Below, one piece after another: positions 48,955-60,211 of a DNA stretch of 64,000 nt; the stretch's first letter is position 1; each line of letters begins with the position of its first letter. The notes under the pieces are model-generated. The model saw only the letters and a program-made list of their open reading frames with translations. It was not told the DNA's origin and searched no databases. Position numbers and translations under genes: made by a program. Source of the DNA: Spirochaetia bacterium (GTDB taxonomy: Bacteria; Spirochaetota; Spirochaetia; DSM-2461); NCBI GenBank assembly GCA_963668315.1, contig OY764216.1, positions 4,416,001 to 4,480,000 of the forward strand. Direction: 5' to 3'.

Positions 48955-49218
48955 ATAGCTATTATGCCTCTCAGGAATTCAACATGGGCGACCCGCGCTG
49001 TTGTCCATTGAAAAAATCACCATAAAGATACCTTCGACGATTAAAAACAACAATCGGGAAATCATGCAGAAGATTTCCCGATTCTATCGTAATATACAGT
49101 TATTTTCAATTTCCTTGCTAATGGCTTTTTTTTCAAAAAAAGAGTCCCGAAATATATATTCGGACGACCGGGCGTCATTCTTTTCTGTATATTCATGCAT
49201 ATTTTCATTCAAGGAGAG

Positions 49219-51273
49219 ATGACCCAATTGAAAAAGAAACATTCTCGATTCAGAGGTACGACGGTTCTGCTAATTACGCTCCTAGCAGCCCTGGCAAGCG
49301 GTTGCCCGGACGGTACGACCAACAGCCCGGTTAGGGAGACCTACACGGTCAGCTATGACGGCAATGGTGCCGTCACCGGTTCGGTTCCGGTTGACACTGC
49401 ACTCTATGGGGAAGGTGATTCCGTTACGGTACTGGACAATACCGGCAACCTTGGAAAAACCGATTTTTCCTTCACAGGCTGGAATACGGCGGCTGACGGC
49501 AGCGGCACGGCCTACTCTGCCGGAAGTACGTTTGCTATGGAAGCCGCCGATACGACGCTCTACGCCCAGTGGCTGTCGCAAAAAGTCACACTGGCCATAT
49601 CGATTCCTGCAGAAAACGGCTATACCAGGGAGCAGACGTTTACGGTCAGTTTCCTTTTCAATAAGGATGTGACCGGTTTTGACAGCAGTGATATAATCAT
49701 ATCGAACGGCACCCTCTCCGGCTTAACGGGAAGCGGAAAAACCTATTCAGCCACAGTTACAGCAGATGCTGAAGGCGCCGTTGTTATTACAGCAGCGGAT
49801 AAGGCGGCCACCGCCGACAACGGCTACAGCTCGGAGCTTACCGCTTATACCGTCCATTACGACATAACAGCACCTGCCACAGTGACTCCGGTGATTACCG
49901 CCATAGGCGGCGGAAAACTGACCATGATTTGGAATGAACCAACCGATGATCCCAGTTTTGACCACGTCCTTGTCAGTTATGATGACAGTCCTCAGGTAAA
50001 GGTCGATAAGGGAACTACCTCCTATACCTTCAGCGGCCTTTCAATAGGAGAATCCTATTGTCCGCTGATCTATACGGTAGACGCCGCGGGCAATACAACC
50101 GAATACCCCGGTGAGGGTTTAAGCGAGTATATGGAAGATGATGTTTTCAGAACCCTTTACCATGTGAAGAACGCATCTGATCTTACGGCAATGGCTAATG
50201 ATCTGAACGGGTACTACATCATTAATAATACTATCGATCTTCAGGATATCTCCAGCTGGACACCGATCGGCACAGAAAGTGCCCCCTTTACCGGTATTAT
50301 TTCAGGAGGAAACAGTAGCTGGAGCAGCAGACGTATCACGAATATGAAGGTATCGGCCGGAAACTACAGAGGCCTTCTGGGTTATGCGTCTTCTGCCTAT
50401 ATACACAATATTGAACTCCGAACCTCCAGTATAGCCGTTGCAGACGGGAATCAGTACTGCGGACTTCTGGCAGGGTATATGAAGAACTCCAGGGTTATAG
50501 ACACATGGATAGAAGGCAGCGTAGGTTCCGGCAACTACGGCTCCTATATAGGAGGGGTGGCCGGCTTTATCTCTGGTACTACAATAGATACCTGTACAGC
50601 TTTTATCGATGTAAAAGGAAATCAGTACTGTGGAGGAATTACCGGGGCTACAGAAGGCAATTCAGCAGTAAATCTGGCCGGTGTAATCAGCAGCAGCTCT
50701 CCAGGTCTTTCCGGAGCAGTGGGCATAGCCGGCCTTGTAGGACTTGCAGGAAGCGGTACTCTGGCAATAAGCGAATCTTATATATATATGAATATTTCTT
50801 CAGCATCTGAAGCCGCAGAGAAAAAATATGCGGCAGGCTTATGCGCAATAAATGAAGGCAGTCTGATAATTCACGACTGTTTTGCAATGGGAAACGTAAG
50901 CAATACAGGGGGCAGCTATACCGGAGGTCTGATTGGATACGGCAGCGGTTCGGTGACCTGTACAAACTCATATTGCGACGGAGTAATTACCGGCGGCACT
51001 GGTACAGGTGGATTATACGGATATATCGAAGGTCCTGCAGTAACATCAGGATGCTTCTTCTCTCCAAGAACAGGACAGACATCTGTAAAGGGAGATATCA
51101 ACGGCGATGGAGTAGCCGACGGTAACGGCGAAGGCGAACTATATGACAGCAGCTACCCCGGCTACACCGGCTCAATGAATGGTATTGTCGCTGCAGGAGG
51201 CTGGAGCACTGATATCTGGAATGACAGCGTCTTCAGTTCTCCATTATTGAATAATAATATAATTCCATTTTAA
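49219..51273 (+). CDS. Surface lipoprotein with InlB B-repeat, Ig-like, FN3-like and GLUG-type repeats
   Basis: ATG at 49219 after AAGGAG; lipobox LASGC; YTVSYDGNG...FTGWNTAADGSG...LYAQW; VTGFDSSDI; WTPIG, IGGVAG, TGGLIG. Confidence 0.85.
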   Translation: MTQLKKKHSRFRGTTVLLITLLAALASGCPDGTTNSPVRETYTVSYDGNGAVTGSVPVDTALYGEGDSVTVLDNTGNLGKTDFSFTGWNTAADGSGTAYSAGSTFAMEAADTTLYAQWLSQKVTLAISIPAENGYTREQTFTVSFLFNKDVTGFDSSDIIISNGTLSGLTGSGKTYSATVTADAEGAVVITAADKAATADNGYSSELTAYTVHYDITAPATVTPVITAIGGGKLTMIWNEPTDDPSFDHVLVSYDDSPQVKVDKGTTSYTFSGLSIGESYCPLIYTVDAAGNTTEYPGEGLSEYMEDDVFRTLYHVKNASDLTAMANDLNGYYIINNTIDLQDISSWTPIGTESAPFTGIISGGNSSWSSRRITNMKVSAGNYRGLLGYASSAYIHNIELRTSSIAVADGNQYCGLLAGYMKNSRVIDTWIEGSVGSGNYGSYIGGVAGFISGTTIDTCTAFIDVKGNQYCGGITGATEGNSAVNLAGVISSSSPGLSGAVGIAGLVGLAGSGTLAISESYIYMNISSASEAAEKKYAAGLCAINEGSLIIHDCFAMGNVSNTGGSYTGGLIGYGSGSVTCTNSYCDGVITGGTGTGGLYGYIEGPAVTSGCFFSPRTGQTSVKGDINGDGVADGNGEGELYDSSYPGYTGSMNGIVAAGGWSTDIWNDSVFSSPLLNNNIIPF

Positions 51274-51393: not shown

Positions 51394-51686
51394 ATGTTAG
51401 ATTTAAGTACCAGGTTCAGTTATTTTCTCAGTTTCTTCATTGCCGCCGGCGGGATGTTCTCGGTGATTGCGTCCGTGATGCTGATCATCGTGATCCGTGA
51501 GAAAAAACTGATCCATTATCTGCAGGCGGGCTTTTTCTTTATATTCGGATTCTGTATCCTCTGCGACCCCTATTACCGTCTCGGAACCGAGAACCTTGCC
51601 CCTCACCTGCTGTACATCAACTACCCTATCGTAATGCTTATAGGCCCGCTTTTCTTTCTCTACTTTAAAAGCCTCTTTGACCGGAG
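51394..51686 (+). pseudogene. Membrane-anchored AraC regulator, 5' part (interrupted by transposon)
   Basis: Hydrophobic N-terminus ...GPLFFLYFKSLFDR ends at the CGGAG target duplication; in frame with the 3' part once the element is removed. Confidence 0.85.
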
Positions 51687-51778
51687 TGTTGAATCACACA
51701 TTATCCTGACCAAAACTTCCAGATTATTCTGGAATCCAAATTATTTTAACAGCTTCCCCGAAAGGGAAGCCATAAATC

Positions 51779-52084
51779 TTAGAACGGCAAACTTAACTGT
51801 CCGTCAAAATCCGCATCAGGATCAAGAGAAAGTTCATCCCACTCCTTCTCAAGTATCTCCTCAATTACCGGTACAGAGACCTTTCCATAATAGAGAGCTC
51901 TCTCACAGGCTGCCTCCATTCTCACCGGCGAGACCTTAAACGTCAGATCCAAAAACCGACTGACCTCTTCATATTTCTCATGGCACCACCTACCCCACAA
52001 CATATAGGCTACCTGCCTGGTTTTCTCCATGAAAAGATAAGTTTCAGGAGGAGTAAAGCGAAAAAAAGTTTTCCCATTATCCAT
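51779..52084 (-). CDS. Transposon ORF4, resembles the IS21 IstA C-terminal helical segment
   Basis: RMEAACERALYYGKVSVPVIEEILEKEWD; CAGGAGG SD upstream; lies inside the element ends. Confidence 0.65.
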   Translation of the reverse strand: MDNGKTFFRFTPPETYLFMEKTRQVAYMLWGRWCHEKYEEVSRFLDLTFKVSPVRMEAACERALYYGKVSVPVIEEILEKEWDELSLDPDADFDGQLSLPF

Positions 52085-52098
52085 ACGGCTTCCTCCTG

Positions 52099-52902
52099 TT
52101 AGATGATTTCGGTCTGAGCGATGCGAACATGTTCCGCGGAAACGAGCTGACTTTTTTCTTTCGCCGCCGCCATCATAGCTCCCCTGGCGATGGTGTTAGC
52201 CCGTCTTAGAAGTCCTCCCGATGTTTGATGGATAGCAAGAATGGCTTCATCTGCGAATAGGGGCTTCTCCATCCCGGCCAGATGAAGATGATGTTCCAGG
52301 TATCCTTTCATATGCTTCAGATTCAGACTGTCCAAATGGGAGCGCCCCACGATACGCGATGCCAGGGGTTTGGCGGAAATAGCCATGAGTTTGTCTATGA
52401 GCCCGTCCTGCCCGCAGAGAATTATGGGCATAATCGGGTTTGAATCAAAATCAAACTGACAGAGAGTATGAAGCTGGTTGAAGACCTTGGACTTAAGAAG
52501 ATGGGCTTCATCTATAACGAGAATGGGGACTTTTTTCTTTGAAGCAATGTCTTTTATGATATCCCGGACATTTTTCATCGCGATAGCCAGCTGAAATGAA
52601 CGGTACTCCTCCCCAAACTCCATAAGAAACTGCCGTAAAAGCTCCATCATACTGCCCGATGTAGCGACCAGCGAGATAATCTTGTACTTCCCCGGGTGGA
52701 ACTTACTACACGCCAATCTCAGAGATGTGGATTTCCCGGATCCTACTTCCCCAGTGATGAGAGAGATAGCTCCCAGCTTTACGGCGTATTCAAATCTGTC
52801 CAAAAGGGGCGGTAGTCCAGGCAGCATATAGAGATCATCCAATTTGATTTTCTGAGAATAGGGCTCCTGTGTTAATCCGTAAAAATGCTTTATATCAATC
52901 AT
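52099..52902 (-). CDS. ExeA/GspA-like AAA+ ATPase (transposition helper)
   Basis: HFYGL..EPY, Walker A GEVGSGKS, Walker B ILVIDEAH, IILCGQ; overlaps the transposase stop. Confidence 0.9.
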   Translation of the reverse strand: MIDIKHFYGLTQEPYSQKIKLDDLYMLPGLPPLLDRFEYAVKLGAISLITGEVGSGKSTSLRLACSKFHPGKYKIISLVATSGSMMELLRQFLMEFGEEYRSFQLAIAMKNVRDIIKDIASKKKVPILVIDEAHLLKSKVFNQLHTLCQFDFDSNPIMPIILCGQDGLIDKLMAISAKPLASRIVGRSHLDSLNLKHMKGYLEHHLHLAGMEKPLFADEAILAIHQTSGGLLRRANTIARGAMMAAAKEKSQLVSAEHVRIAQTEII

Positions 52903-54184
52903 CGTTTTCTTCCTCCGAGAATAGTTGTCCGCCGCTATAGGGATTGGAATTCAGATCAGCTTGAATCTCTGAACGTTTGACCTGGCTATTGATATGCACG
53001 TCCATAGGTTTAAGAAATCCTCTGGATTTATCGGCAATAAAGATTTCTACCCGGCTCATATCCGATTCATCGTAAGAGAGGTAGACCTTCTGCCCTGCCA
53101 GACCGATGGGTGCCTGGTATAGTTTTCCCTCGATACTGACCGATCTGTCATTGGTTACCGTTCTGAGCAGTCTCTTACGAAAATAATCATTCAGATTCTC
53201 CGGAGCCGATCGAAGAAGGGTTAGTGATTTCAAATAACGGTCCAGAGGTTTCTCCCGGATTGAAGAGTGTTTCCTAATATGATAATTCTCATCAATGAAA
53301 GCAGCGAGATGCCCGTTCAATTCCTCCAATGTCAGTTCTTCCGGAAGGGCTTGAAGAACCTCCATCCTGACCGTCCTGTTAAATCTTTCGATTTTCCCTT
53401 TCCCTTGAGGGCGGTAGGGCTTCGCATACGTCAGAACAATCCCCAGAGAAGCGCAACCGTATTGAAGCTTATGGGATTTGAAATAAGCGCCGTTGTCCGT
53501 GTAGAGTTTACGGGGAAGGCCACGCTTAACCAGGGCTTTCTTCATACAGTCGATAAAATTGTCCACATTCTCCCGTAGATAGAACTGGGCATGGGGAATA
53601 AGACGGGAATGATCGTCGATGATGGCGAACATATAGGATTTTCTACGGCGGCCCTCATGAATGACATAAGGACCGTGCATACAGTCCGATTGCCAGAGGT
53701 CATTGGGAAACTCCACTTCGAACTTCAACATATCTTCCTTCTGCTTCCTCTCCTTACCCAGTCCATGTTTTTTCAGAATTCTATAGATGGATTGGGAGGA
53801 GGCGTTGAAGTCGGGAGGAAGTACATTTCTTTGCCGGGCCAGCCTCATCAAGACGGGAACGGATGCCTTCATAAAATCCTTTCTCAGATTAATGAAGGCC
53901 AGTTCTGTTTCCCTGTCCATAATGCGGCATCCGCCCTGGTCCCCCCGGCTTTTGGGATGCAGACTCTCTATTTGCCGACCGCTGGATTCATACTTTCTGA
54001 GCCAACTGAGGATAGTCGCGCGGCTGATATAGGTACGGGTGGAAAAAGGGATATTCCACTCCCTAGCCGTCAATTTATCAAGGACATCCCTTTGCATACC
54101 CCAATCTTCTCTGCTCAGATCCAGTAAAGGATAGATCACAGAAAACCGGAAGGCGGCTACTTTTTCTCGTTCTTCTTTGGTCAT
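52895..54184 (-). CDS. DDE transposase (rve core, N-terminal HTH, Mu-like C-terminal domain)
   Basis: LWQSD, IIDDHSR, LYTDNG, PYRPQGKGKIERF, RTVTNDRSVSIEG. Confidence 0.93.
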   Translation of the reverse strand: MTKEEREKVAAFRFSVIYPLLDLSREDWGMQRDVLDKLTAREWNIPFSTRTYISRATILSWLRKYESSGRQIESLHPKSRGDQGGCRIMDRETELAFINLRKDFMKASVPVLMRLARQRNVLPPDFNASSQSIYRILKKHGLGKERKQKEDMLKFEVEFPNDLWQSDCMHGPYVIHEGRRRKSYMFAIIDDHSRLIPHAQFYLRENVDNFIDCMKKALVKRGLPRKLYTDNGAYFKSHKLQYGCASLGIVLTYAKPYRPQGKGKIERFNRTVRMEVLQALPEELTLEELNGHLAAFIDENYHIRKHSSIREKPLDRYLKSLTLLRSAPENLNDYFRKRLLRTVTNDRSVSIEGKLYQAPIGLAGQKVYLSYDESDMSRVEIFIADKSRGFLKPMDVHINSQVKRSEIQADLNSNPYSGGQLFSEEENDD

Positions 54185-54212
54185 AAAACCTCCTAAAACG
54201 TTTTATTTCCAT

Positions 54213-54701
54213 TTAAGGCGGTATTTTATTAGTTGTCACTGCAAAGCTAAGGTAGGTCATGCAGAGAGCTACCGATTTCACATCATGATTTATCGAATGT
54301 GAGGGGAAGCAGAACCGATTCTGAACGCTGTCTGAAAGGAAAAGGGAGAGATCAAAATTCAGTCCCTGAATAGCAGCTTGTTTCATCAGTCCCCGATACC
54401 AGTATTGCTGCCTTTGACGGCTGAAGGATGTGAACCAGGTATGGGATTCTAACTTATGAGAAAGGCTTCGATAAATTTCTGTAGCGGTTGATTGAAACCT
54501 GGGGAAATATGCAACAGGCCTGGCCGTATGTACCGCTCCGCACTCGGGACAGCGGAATCTTTTGAGGTAGAGTCCTTCCGGAAATTCGTCGAAATAACGC
54601 AGTACATAACCATGCCCCCAGATCCTGAAACTTTGGCAGGAAGGACATCTTCTTGGTTTCCTCCAGACATAATTCTTATGTTTCTCTTTAAGGACAGCCA
54701 A
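54213..54701 (-). CDS. Transposon ORF1, zinc-ribbon protein (DUF6431-like)
   Basis: CPSC...WGHGY..RY...RFRCPECG; first ORF of the element; start codon uncertain. Confidence 0.75.
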   Translation of the reverse strand: MAVLKEKHKNYVWRKPRRCPSCQSFRIWGHGYVLRYFDEFPEGLYLKRFRCPECGAVHTARPVAYFPRFQSTATEIYRSLSHKLESHTWFTSFSRQRQQYWYRGLMKQAAIQGLNFDLSLFLSDSVQNRFCFPSHSINHDVKSVALCMTYLSFAVTTNKIPP

Positions 54702-54873
54702 ATCCGTCCGAAAATAAATTATGATTTATGGGTTGGGATAGCCGTTCTTGCAGGAACAATAGGCTATCCCTTTTTTATCGATAATTTATTTTGTGAAAAT
54801 GAAGTATAAAAATATTTTATTGTGGAATATTGATAGAATAATCTGATAGATTAATGTTGGATTCTACACGGAG

Positions 54874-55666
54874 ATTCAAAATAACGCGAAGGCACCTTCT
54901 GTTTCTGCTTCCGACGCTGATTACAGCCATAGCGTTCATTCCCTACTACATACTTCCCGTAGGGACAAAGCTTGCATTATTTCCTATAGAACAGCAACCG
55001 AAGGGCTACTTCAGAACGATAGGTGTAATATCCGGATATGTCTTATTCCCGTGGAATGCGCTCTGCTGCGTCTTTTCCATCAAAGACAGCCTCAGTATTC
55101 TCGGGAAAAAAAATAAAACCTTCTGGATCACATTCATCTTTATCATCGCCGTGGTAGCAGCATCAATCTTCTTAAGCTGGGTAGACACCCGTGAAAATAT
55201 GTTCTTCTATAAAACAGCTATTGTCATAATGACTTTTCTGGTCATAGTTCTTGCCGTCATTACAGCGTCCGACCCGAGTTTTTACATCCGCATAAGAATG
55301 CAGACCAGCGTCGCGAAATACACCCGTTCTAAGCTTGCGAGCTTGAATGTGGAAGCCCTGATCTCACACATAGATGATCTCATGGACTTTGAACACCTCT
55401 ACCGTGATTCGGAACTCAGCCTTTCGGCTCTCAGTGAAAGGCTGGAGATAAGCCCGCATCAGCTATCTGAAATTATCAATTCCCATTTTGGAAAAAACTT
55501 CAACAGCTATATAAACGACTTCAGGATCGAAGCCGCCAAGAAGATGCTCATGACGGAAACCGGGTCCAGTATCCTCTCTATCGGTCTCGCCTGCGGATTT
55601 AATTCAAAGTCCAATTTCAACTATGTATTCCAGAAATCCGTCGGGATGACTCCCACGGCATATTGA
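54874..55666 (+). pseudogene. Membrane-anchored AraC regulator, 3' part
   Basis: TM helices then KYTRSKL, LYRDSELSL, HQLSEIIN, NFNSYINDFRI, GFNSKSNFN. Confidence 0.88.
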
Positions 55667-57551: not shown

Positions 57552-57613
57552 TAATTGACTTATCAACTATTTTGCTGCGCCATCTTAGGTAGTTATAATT
57601 GATATGTCAACTA
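57552..57613. promoter_or_regulatory. Two candidate MarR operators
   Basis: TAATTGACTTATCAACTA (57552-57569) and TAATTGATATGTCAACTA (57596-57613), near-palindromic and similar to each other. Confidence 0.7.
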
Positions 57614-57813
57614 TATTAGAGACGTAGAAGCCCTTCAAGGGAAATGGAAGGGACAGAATTCATGTCAACAATTTTATACATTGCGGATTCCACCATCAAT
57701 CCATAGAAAAAAGAAAAGAATAAAATGAATGACACCATCAAAATATGGATGTATGCTGAAAGGACTAAGCAGTAATCCTATGAGAGGTCGAATTTTAGAT
57801 TAAGTCCTAAGTT

Positions 57814-59460
57814 ATGAATTATCAAACTAAATTGCGAAAAGAATTTATGAGTTTCTCCATTAAACTGATTCTTGTAGTTGCTTTTCTCTTTGCATCAGTA
57901 ACGGTGACGGTCAATTTAGTGAATAACAATATGAATAAAAATCATAGCCTTGCCCAGGTAAACAGATCTTTTTTAGATTTAAATGATAAAATAGCTTCGC
58001 AAATCGCATCGCATAACTCTGATAATGAGTATTTACAGGCGATACAGGAAAATCGTGTCAACAGAAAACTTGTTTCAAGCACGGACTATTCGTTTTCGCG
58101 AAAGATAAATATCCGGTATGATTATGATATTTACGATTTGAACATAAATCCGATATATCAGGAATCATATCATTTGCCACCGCGATATGAGATTTATCTG
58201 AGCATAATAAAAGATAGAGTGGTGGAGAATGTACCAGTAAAGTATATTTTGTATCCGAATTTCAGCACCCATACGGCAAGTTTAATCTATTATGGCGGAT
58301 TATATAAAGATACGAAGCTCATTGGCATTGATATGTACTCAATAGATATAAGCGACCTTGTTTACGTTTTATTGCCAAATAACGGGGATTATATCATTAC
58401 CGATCGTTTTGACAGCATAATCGCCACAAATAATTATAAAATATTAGATGACAGTCTTAACTTTACATATGCTAAAAACTATAAAATTGATGATACCCTT
58501 TATCATGTAACCAGTTTTAAACAGGAATATTATTCCATTTATTGTCTTGAAAAAAATATCAGTTTAAGAAAATCTTACTTGTTAGCATTCTCGATGCTGT
58601 TTGTCATATTGCTTGTTGTTGTCGTTTTCTCTAATAAAAGTGTGAATAGACTTGCGAAAAAAAATTCACAAAGCATAGAATCAATCATTACCGATGTCAA
58701 TATTGTTTCAAATGGCAATCTGCATCACAGGATTTCTGAAAATATCGAGGGTGATTTTAAAGATCTCGCTAAAAACATCAATAAAATGCTGAGAAAATTA
58801 AATAGAGAAATCAGACTGAATAAAGAGTTAAGCGAGACGAATATCATCTTTGAAAAAAGAAAGCTGGATGCACAATTCAATCCTCATTTTCTATACAATT
58901 CGCTGGAGACAATCCGCTATTCCATGCAGTACGATATAAAAGGGACGGAAAAATACATTCTCGATCTAAATGAGATTTTGCGATATTCCATATCAAATGA
59001 CATCAGCTATTCTTCAGTTAAGGACGATCTAGCCTATATAAGCAAATATCTGGAATTATACAAATATAGATTCACAGACAAATTAACCTATTCAATTCAC
59101 ATTTCCGACGCCATGAAAGACGTTTTAATTCCTAAATTGGCAATTCAGCCCTTAATCGGCAATAGTCTGAAGTCAGGATTCAGCAGCAGCCTTTATGTAA
59201 ATATCGATGTATCAGCAGATAAGGTGGACAATGTCTGTTATATCAGAGTAAGGGATAATGGAGTGGGCTTAACCGAAGACGTGATTAAAGAAATCAATGA
59301 AATTTGTAAGAATAAAAGCAATCGGACTAACCATATTGGCATTCATAATGTTTTACGCCGATTTATGATCCTGTATCACGATGCGAAGCTGAATGTCCGG
59401 CAGGATAGGGATTCGACCCTATTTGAGCTGAGTTTTAGAGAAGTTGATAGAAATGTTTAA
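57814..59460 (+). CDS. YesM-like sensor histidine kinase
   Basis: Two TM segments, HAMP, AQFNPHFLYNSLE, IPKLAIQPL, VRDNGVG, HIGIHNV. Confidence 0.9.
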   Translation: MNYQTKLRKEFMSFSIKLILVVAFLFASVTVTVNLVNNNMNKNHSLAQVNRSFLDLNDKIASQIASHNSDNEYLQAIQENRVNRKLVSSTDYSFSRKINIRYDYDIYDLNINPIYQESYHLPPRYEIYLSIIKDRVVENVPVKYILYPNFSTHTASLIYYGGLYKDTKLIGIDMYSIDISDLVYVLLPNNGDYIITDRFDSIIATNNYKILDDSLNFTYAKNYKIDDTLYHVTSFKQEYYSIYCLEKNISLRKSYLLAFSMLFVILLVVVVFSNKSVNRLAKKNSQSIESIITDVNIVSNGNLHHRISENIEGDFKDLAKNINKMLRKLNREIRLNKELSETNIIFEKRKLDAQFNPHFLYNSLETIRYSMQYDIKGTEKYILDLNEILRYSISNDISYSSVKDDLAYISKYLELYKYRFTDKLTYSIHISDAMKDVLIPKLAIQPLIGNSLKSGFSSSLYVNIDVSADKVDNVCYIRVRDNGVGLTEDVIKEINEICKNKSNRTNHIGIHNVLRRFMILYHDAKLNVRQDRDSTLFELSFREVDRNV

Positions 59461-60211
59461 TGTTGTCGTTTGCGAGGATGAGGATATTATCAGAAAGGGA
59501 TTGCTCTTCAGTTTCGACTTTCAAAGTCTAAACTTGAATGTGATGGCAGATTTCTATAATCCGGTCGCCTGCCTGGAGTATCTGGCTGATCATCCCGTGG
59601 ATATTCTGATTACCGATATAAAAATGCCGCTTATGAGCGGTTTGGAAATGATCAGCAGAATTGAAGATAAATCCAGTCTTGAATTTATAATATTAAGCGG
59701 TTACAGCGATTTTGAATATGCAAAACAGGCCATATCCCATGGAGTCACGGAATATCTGGTAAAACCCTTAAATCATGACTTGCTGAAAGTATCATTGGAA
59801 AAAGCCATTACTAATCTGAGCGATAAAAAACTATTGAAAAACGTTAAACATCAAATGAGAGACTTAACTGAAGTGTACAAGGATATTCCTTCCGAAGATG
59901 CCTTACTGCAGTCTATCATTTCTTTTATTAAAAAGAATTACATGAGGAAAATCGGCTTAAATGATGTAGCAGAAGCCTTAAACTACAGCGTTTCCTCCAT
60001 AAAAAATAAGCTAAAAGACAATAACCTGACATTCAATACGACTTTAAATCATTATAGAATATATAAATCAATTCAATTAATAAGCCTCAACGAATCACCG
60101 GTTTATCAAATTGCGCAGATGGTCGGGTTCAGTGATTACAAATACTTTTCGGCAAAATTTAAGAATTACACAGGATACTCCGTCACTGAATTAGTTCAAA
60201 AAACACGATAA
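59453..60211 (+). CDS. YesN-like response regulator (receiver plus AraC)
   Basis: CEDE, DILITDIKMP, LSGYSDFEYA, YLVKP, VGFSDYKYFS; ATG at 59453. Confidence 0.92.
   Translation: MFNVVVCEDEDIIRKGLLFSFDFQSLNLNVMADFYNPVACLEYLADHPVDILITDIKMPLMSGLEMISRIEDKSSLEFIILSGYSDFEYAKQAISHGVTEYLVKPLNHDLLKVSLEKAITNLSDKKLLKNVKHQMRDLTEVYKDIPSEDALLQSIISFIKKNYMRKIGLNDVAEALNYSVSSIKNKLKDNNLTFNTTLNHYRIYKSIQLISLNESPVYQIAQMVGFSDYKYFSAKFKNYTGYSVTELVQKTR

Follow-up and report, generated by a model that had tools for sequence, protein, structure and literature searches.

A Tn6049-type transposon in a Spirochaetia bacterium, with a fourth gene homologous in sequence to the end of long IS21 transposases

The DNA analysed here (the window) is a 64,000-nucleotide stretch of a Spirochaetia bacterium genome (assembly GCA_963668315.1, contig OY764216.1, positions 4,416,001 to 4,480,000), within which a four-gene transposon interrupts the gene for an AraC-family regulator. 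An earlier note, made from the sequence alone, had placed this transposon at 51682-54873. The element was found there, its proper bounds being 51687-54868, as the longer span also counts both copies of the CGGAG target-site duplication. The features of the locus, with open reading frames abbreviated as ORFs, are as follows.

51394..51686, plus strand: 5' part of the interrupted AraC-family regulator gene (membrane-anchored)
51682..51686: target-site duplication, left copy CGGAG, read from the sequence
51687..54868, minus strand: whole transposon, 3,182 bp, bounded by identical genome copies and by the same ends in a 98.4% identical copy
51687..51746: ORF4-side (downstream) end, with terminal TGT and a 14/17 inverted repeat
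51693-51706 and 51716-51729, with a weak third at 51733-51746: putative transposase-binding sites, ORF4-side end
51779..52084, minus strand: ORF4, 101 amino acids, free-standing homolog of the C-terminal helical domain of long IstA proteins, with a possibly DnaD-like fold and a clamp-motif-like QLSLPF ending, optional in the family
52099..52902, minus strand: AAA+ ATPase, 267 amino acids, ExeA/GspA-like (AAA_22), Walker A at residues 51-58 and Walker B at 128-133
52895..54184, minus strand: DDE transposase, 429 amino acids, with helix-turn-helix, rve core, Mu-transpos_C barrel and C-terminal GxLF tail
54213..54701, minus strand: ORF1, 162 amino acids from the listed TTG, DUF6431-type zinc ribbon by sequence plus probable helix-turn-helix, frame open to 54725
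54784..54868: ORF1-side (upstream) end, with terminal ACA
54849-54862, 54836-54849 and 54784-54797: putative transposase-binding sites, ORF1-side end
54869..54873: target-site duplication, right copy CGGAG, read from the sequence
54874..55666, plus strand: 3' part of the interrupted AraC-family gene (HTH_18, HTH_AraC)

The structural description given in the earlier note was confirmed throughout. The termini are TGT...ACA with 14 of 17 inverted-repeat positions matching, an exact 5-bp CGGAG duplication flanks the element on both sides, and the four open, co-oriented ORFs (162, 429, 267 and 101 amino acids) all lie on the minus strand. The D-D-E triad (D167, D230, E266) is intact and invariant across 40 aligned homologs, and excision of the element with one copy of the duplication restores a 361-codon AraC-family frame (...LFDR/RFKITRR...). 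The repeated motif ATTA(T/A)(T/C)(C/T)T occurs three times in one end and twice in the other, and also twice in the interior. With a profile built from the ends of related elements, which share a TGT start and a CnCACATTAA core consensus, two strong sites were found at one end and three at the other (9-12 bits), while 2 of 5,536 interior positions reached at least 8 bits. The genes are tightly arranged: ORF1 and the transposase gene are 28 bp apart, the ATPase gene overlaps the end of the transposase gene, and ORF4 starts 15 bp downstream of the ATPase gene, with which it is probably co-transcribed. A programmed frameshift between ORF1 and the transposase was considered and ruled out by the transposase's own ribosome-binding site in the 28-bp gap. 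Promoter and terminator scans of the element returned counts at chance level. A perfect palindrome with 7-bp arms (51717-51734) covers part of the second repeat in the ORF4-side end; a T run follows it on the coding strand, and it is possibly a terminator for the operon.

This is a genuine element with a recent history of movement. In the host genome (5.62 Mb, one contig) there are six copies, 100% identical and with the same ends, of which five are flanked by 5-bp duplications, all different. These copies, together with a 98.4% identical copy at another flank, place the element beyond chance. This last copy (52 differences, same two ends) came from a sequencing run of a second study. Read depth in one sequencing run was 1,115 on the element vs. 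191 and 262 on its flanks (about 4-6x). The unit of movement is thus 3,182 bp long, and insertion duplicates 5 bp at unrelated targets, the five sites showing no evident common sequence; we regard the element as active and autonomous. Neither an empty site nor an end-to-end joint was found in four contig sets, assembled contigs being prone to drop rare forms. The copy without a duplication (G000:C1:3379136-3382317) shares its flanks with none of the others, as could result from a deletion alongside it or from recombination between copies. The same genome also contains a three-gene sister element of 2,884 bp with a 22-bp perfect terminal repeat and a transposase 54% identical to that of the window element. 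Its two copies are 95% alike: the one at G000:C1:4501908-4504791 lacks a duplication and adjoins an IS256-like fragment, and the one at 3320949-3327019 has a 4-bp duplication and carries a copy of the four-gene element inserted within its first ORF.

Domain searches assigned the core genes. The transposase matched HTH, rve and Mu-transpos_C. Its best NCBIfam model was IS481 (198 bits, under the 224 cut-off), and it scored 58.8 bits against the IS21 model, for which the cut-off is 160. Its C-terminal G-x-x-F is invariant in 40 homologs; in a tally of transposase sequences the GxLF tail was absent from 23. Among named homologs of the transposase, the closest come from Spirochaetales. The ATPase belongs to AAA_22, with an ExeA-like model as its closest in NCBIfam and no IstB family among Pfam and NCBIfam matches at E 0.1; its homologs retain Walker A in 138/139 and Walker B in 137/139 cases. 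The earlier note was right to see here a compact DDE transposon that is ATPase-assisted, poorly classified, recently inserted and distinct from IS21. ORF1 itself scored 19.2 bits against PF20020 (DUF6431), below the 26.6 cut-off; 36 of its 38 homologs match that family at E 0.01, and the top three matches in an Atlas search were all DUF6431 clusters. By sequence, ORF1 is a DUF6431-type zinc ribbon, probably followed by a helix-turn-helix, as judged from the matches of one distant member; its profile had no PDB sequence match. The ORF1 frame runs eight codons beyond the listed TTG (54702-54725, minus strand), including isoleucine codons that match homolog N-termini, so that translation may in fact begin at a non-standard codon, which could keep ORF1 low. 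Sequence searches found no TniQ match for any ORF of the element, nor for the 38 ORF1 and 33 ORF4 homologs, and for a TnsA endonuclease or a resolvase there was neither a match nor room inside the element's ends.

ATPase matches on Cupriavidus metallidurans CH34 plasmids led to Tn6049, a 3.5-kb transposon present in 12 copies in that strain and carrying the ATPase gene gspA, according to the part of the source drawn on here (PMC2864759). Its copy on the Pseudomonas aeruginosa plasmid pHS87a is described, in the section used, as having TGT...ACA 12-bp repeats and a 4-bp duplication (PMC4739549). Our own measurement of Tn6049 gave a length of 3,517 bp, and its duplications on two plasmids were of 5 and 6 bp. 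Tn6049 shares with the window element (3.2 kb) the gene order of cysteine-rich ORF, DDE transposase, GspA/ExeA-like ATPase and small ORF, the overlap of the ATPase gene with the end of the transposase gene, a similar size, many copies at unrelated sites, and TGT...ACA ends with short imperfect repeats and 4-6 bp duplications. The transposases are 26% identical over 449 amino acids (E 1e-41; profile match 99.9% over 401 columns) and the ATPases 26% over 215 amino acids (E 1e-18). The two elements are nevertheless distant in sequence and their ends diverge after TGT. The fourth ORF of Tn6049 had no match to the ORF4 profile and a weak match to another family found in that slot; since the fourth slot varies across the family (see below), this lowers the identity of the window element with Tn6049, not their kinship. 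Weighing against the assignment is the first ORF of Tn6049, which shares the place and CxxC...CxxC spacing of ORF1 but gave a profile probability of 1.3% and no DUF6431 match. We conclude that the window element is of Tn6049 type, a kind whose layout has already been named and which is barely studied. The earlier note had allowed that the layout might belong to an already described family, and this is partly so: Tn6049 has the same four-gene order, although its 'transposition module could not be categorized' according to the passage cited (PMC6210171). In a literature search with most subscription journals, ISfinder and TnCentral outside it, no mechanistic study of Tn6049 or its family was found, and we found no formal definition of Tn6049-like transposons. 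Nor did this search find a description of the IstA origin of ORF4, considered below.

Likenesses to better-known systems are partial. IS21 also combines a DDE transposase bearing a C-terminal barrel with an AAA+ helper, TG/CA ends and repeated end sites, and the last domain of long IstA proteins is homologous to ORF4; the window element differs in its ExeA-like ATPase, its extra core gene (DUF6431) and in having the IstA domain as a separate gene. IS481 elements have TGT ends and a single transposase, and are not known to encode an ATPase. The IS481 model is the best NCBIfam match of the window transposase, and databases label its relatives, including that of Tn6049, as IS481, yet the window transposase is about 110 amino acids longer, has a Mu-type barrel and belongs to an element of three to four genes. 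Tn7-like elements, Tn5053/Tn402, phage Mu and probably Tn552 encode a transposase and an ATPase regulator and have TGT...ACA ends, 5-bp duplications and several transposase sites per end. All these traits recur in the window element, which differs in having no TniQ/TnsD, TnsA, resolvase, phage genes or cargo. IS1604 and Rv2812/Rv2813 of Mycobacterium tuberculosis may also be relatives. TniQ/TnsD occurs throughout the Tn7 branch, according to the portion of a survey cited here (PMC10293859).

To survey the family, we built the transposase alignment from two sets, the top 80 among 510 metagenome loci and the top 80 among 428 genome loci; these loci are not independent, several being copies or near-copies. 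The genome loci were found with an alignment query, a single-protein transposase query of the genome contigs having found nothing. A search of 300 sampled genomes from the phylum at E 1e-60 yielded no transposase; it scored only 5 of 24 candidates from the host's own genome and is no measure of absence. ORF1 lay upstream of the transposase gene in 146 of the 147 loci with room for it, and the ATPase gene lay downstream in 145/145. ORF1, transposase and ATPase are thus a fixed core kept across many phyla. The family comprised 3,265 proteins at E 1e-40 among 7,999 scored, and 123 plasmid records at 80% cover, its members being commonly annotated as IS481 or as integrase plus ExeA. The same gene order (DUF6431, DDE transposase, AAA ATPase), mostly with a small ORF, was seen on plasmids of Acidithiobacillus, Ruminococcus, Streptomyces and Metabacillus; in the Streptomyces relative (L185:3520-3798) the small ORF lies between the transposase and ATPase genes, not after the latter. 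Among 80 loci with both ends and flanks, the duplication was 5 bp in nine, 4 bp in seven, 6 bp in two and absent in 62, many of which are presumably short metagenome contigs with collapsed repeats.

The slot after the ATPase gene is variable. We classed 159 loci, 121 of them with a located right end. In 73 of these 121, fewer than 200 bp follow the ATPase gene and there is no fourth gene; the ORF4 family occupies the slot in 16, a second family in 13, a third in 18, and none of these in one. When loci without a located end were included, the three families numbered 17, 14 (seven of these being copies of one element) and 19. The second and third families (~90 and ~60 amino acids; L019, L033 and L103; L056, L081 and L095) have no Pfam match and showed purifying selection in the pairs measured. 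ORF4 is optional in the family, as few loci carry it (17/160), the sister element in the same genome has three genes and ORF4 is patchy on the transposase tree, where it occurs in two distant parts (support values were not inspected). The expectation that homologs keep both accessory ORFs therefore held for ORF1 and mostly failed for ORF4.

This patchiness raises the possibility that ORF4 is a passenger gene that plays no part in transposition, left by an IS21 element that inserted and decayed in the end of a three-gene element. The 73 loci without a fourth gene would agree with this, as would the multi-copy state of three-gene elements in complete genomes. Several features of the ORF4 gene itself speak against it. 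Homologs down to 24-44% identity keep an intact frame and their own start, and the place and orientation of the gene are constant in 17/17 loci, with four more from the genome survey described below. Five pairs from the ORF4 family gave ratios of nonsynonymous to synonymous substitution rates (dN/dS) of 0.23, 0.12, 0.30, 0.31 and 0.85, two further pairs being saturated, and in the 98.4% identical copy four of the six listed ORF4 changes are silent (40 of 48 listed differences being shown). The pair at 0.85 goes the other way; by these sequence ratios ORF4 is mostly under purifying selection, and we regard the passenger explanation as improbable.

We next consider where ORF4 came from. It has no Pfam or PHROG family and its profile no PDB sequence match; at E 0.001, 19 other representatives (71-138 amino acids) were found among 1.84 billion proteins. 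On plasmids, three records matched, one of which is the end of an annotated IS21 istA. All 16 longer matches to the ORF4 profile were IstA-type proteins with the IS21-type PF22483 barrel, aligned over their last 100 residues. The ORF4 domain was then surveyed in two sets of 400 genomes, in which 56 loci were examined after three copies of the element itself and one unpublished genome had been set aside: at 46 the domain is fused to IstA, at four it stands free behind a Tn6049-type ATPase, at four it lies beside a broken istA, and two are at contig edges. Sequence comparison thus gives good support to ORF4 as a stand-alone homolog of the helical domain with which long IS21 transposases end. Homology being what was shown, the direction would be that the transposon captured the 3' end of istA from a long IS21 gene. 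In most IstA proteins the C-terminus is an NIRG motif, unlike the tail of ORF4; in three IstA proteins of the host class (L225, L226, L231) the last domain ends GQ-aliphatic-x-F-x-F, as ORF4 does, and these possibly represent the donor lineage. Published IS21 structures, in the part of the report cited (PMC12486865), end in the barrel and a flexible tail and do not cover an ORF4-type domain. The literature search delimited above found no description of a free-standing IstA domain.

The tail of ORF4 resembles a motif for binding the sliding clamp. Its C-terminus, QLSLPF, is one residue off the QLSLPL of Hda. According to the section consulted of one source (bioRxiv 10.64898/2026.05.27.728225), clamp motifs take the forms Q-aliphatic-x-L-F and Q-aliphatic-x-L-x-L, Hda QLSLPL binds the Escherichia coli clamp tightly, and binding of six-residue motifs to the Bacillus clamp is tenfold weaker. 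Among transposases, peptides from nine other families bind the clamp in the report as excerpted (PMC3971601), where IS21 and IS481 are not included. A loose tail pattern, drawn from the ORF4 alignment after that alignment had been viewed, was found in 26/33 ORF4 homologs, compared with 107 of 5,104 long genome ORFs and 1/16 IstA proteins, and in 38/57 homologs collected later. The Q is nearly invariant, and the tail switches between five- and six-residue clamp-like forms. In structure prediction, the complex of ORF4 with the host DnaN scored 0.43 (best control 0.00), with at least 97% contact agreement between runs and a partner pLDDT (predicted local distance difference test) of at least 74. 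In the benchmark for this score, the mark was reached by 116/157 solved complexes and 2/215 mismatches, and the range at or below 0.60 held only 18 of the 157 solved complexes and both mismatches. The prediction thus gives weak support to clamp binding by ORF4, and likeness to solved clamp-peptide structures could explain the score.

Several observations count against a clamp-binding role. The strict published consensus is present in 12/33 aligned ORF4 homologs and in only 2/57 new ones, one homolog (L021) has lost the tail, the clamp-like motif occurs in 0/14 and 0/21 members of the other two slot families, and the orientation of the genome copies (see below) shows no bias to replication. The frequent departure from the strict consensus would suit a different function, in which ORF4 is a regulator of the transposase or ATPase: a detached piece of IstA that attaches to the transposition complex, or tags this complex for proteolysis via the hydrophobic tail, and so damps or times transposition. 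Derivation from a transposase domain, probable co-transcription with the ATPase gene 15 bp upstream, and use of the same slot by three unrelated small proteins are also in keeping with regulation. The near-invariant Q and the alternation of five- and six-residue clamp-like forms speak against it, the transposase is only distantly related to IstA, so that a retained interface is not expected, and the complex prediction, weak as it is, points to the clamp. We judge regulation an unlikely function for ORF4.

A likeness of ORF4 to the C-terminal domain of the replication protein DnaD was also tested. The predicted core of ORF4 comprises 56 residues (pLDDT 94). When it was compared with 48,161 chains, the DnaD structures 2zc2 (Z 5.4, root-mean-square deviation 3.1, 51 residues aligned) and 2i5u (Z 4.5, deviation 3.1, 48 aligned) ranked third and fourth, whereas searches with full-length ORF4 were filled by matches to its long first helix. 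The six most conserved residues of DnaD are given, in the section cited, as A166, A170, Y180, I184, L185 and W188 (PMC2978336). The three-helix core of the DnaD/DnaB C-terminal domain (DDBH2) superposes weakly on that of ORF4, and the A, A, I and L anchors are equally spaced, being kept at the DnaD spacing in 32/33, 25/33, 28/33 and 31/33 members of the ORF4 family. Against this stand the DNA-binding Y and W of the DnaD YxxxIxxxW motif, which are not kept in the 33 ORF4 homologs, the lack of any DnaD match in Pfam or PHROG among the same 33 members, and the tie of the DnaD Z-scores with the nucleoporin Nup120 (Z 5.5), in a range that the tool describes as a common helical arrangement. With the ORF4 core as query, Foldseek matched nothing at E 0.001 among solved or viral structures; one phage DnaB/C C-terminal domain appeared at E 4.5. 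The structural comparison is suggestive of a DnaD-like fold for ORF4.

The distribution of the copies bears on a further possibility, that ORF4 is a target selector like TnsE of Tn7 or TniQ, steering insertion towards replication forks or towards mobile DNA of other kinds. At G000:C1:3320000-3385000, four of the six copies fall inside 60 kb, two of them just 5 kb apart, and such close-set copies argue against long-range target immunity. This region also holds IS256-like and IS481-like elements and a primase-like gene, and looks like a mobile-element island. Three copies lie in or between other insertion sequences, one copy lies inside the sister element, and ORF4 occupies the position of tniQ, after the ATPase gene. 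The clustering is explicable by selection or local hopping, however, and the sister element, which lacks ORF4, sits in the same island. The earlier note had also suggested target choice by the accessory proteins. This was not borne out: the five sites share no evident sequence, three copies run with the replication fork and three against it (origin set at the dnaN gene and the skew minimum), and no TniQ match was obtained. A target-selecting ORF4 appears rather implausible, and the evidence on this gene points to a link with replication instead.

By analogy with Mu, Tn7 and IS21, the transposase would bind the repeated sites in both ends, nick after the terminal CA and join the nicked ends to the target at positions staggered by 5 bp, while the ATPase would assemble on target DNA and switch the transposase on, perhaps via its C-terminal GxLF tail. 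ORF1, which the family keeps, would use its zinc ribbon to bind DNA as a helper or regulator. Because the element encodes no TnsA, TniQ or resolvase, exit from the donor would most likely be by replication, either through a cointegrate or by copy-out via a circle as in IS21, and host replication proteins would be needed; the case for this route is drawn from missing genes. We are fairly confident of the identity as Tn6049 type, this core mechanism and the IstA origin of ORF4 taken jointly. ORF4 would be held under purifying selection in a swappable fourth slot, where it might connect the intermediate of transposition with the host replisome through a sliding-clamp motif and a DnaD-like helical core, a role that we propose tentatively as the likeliest. 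A broader reading, which we find doubtful, is that the IstA C-terminal domain is a DnaD-like replication-restart module with a clamp tail, captured as a separate gene by Tn6049-type elements, and that the slot is an exchangeable socket for handover to the replisome. If true, this would name the missing step that starts DNA synthesis in resolvase-free, ATPase-assisted elements, IS21 included. Should ORF4 bind the clamp, one shared module would link two transposon families to the host replisome; should it not, the element would be an ordinary new member of the Tn6049 group. As a small and separable protein, ORF4 gives access to a domain that has no annotation and is carried by many IS21 transposases, and the intact, demonstrably active copy is a good substrate for a first assay.

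Two further observations concern the surroundings of the element. Just upstream of the interrupted AraC-family gene, 49195-51273 encodes a 692-amino-acid lipoprotein-like surface protein with Flg_new, Big_12 and fn3 matches and weak GLUG/M26 matches. At 57600-60200 lies a two-component system with 30-40% G+C, compared with ~45% nearby; this region was possibly acquired.

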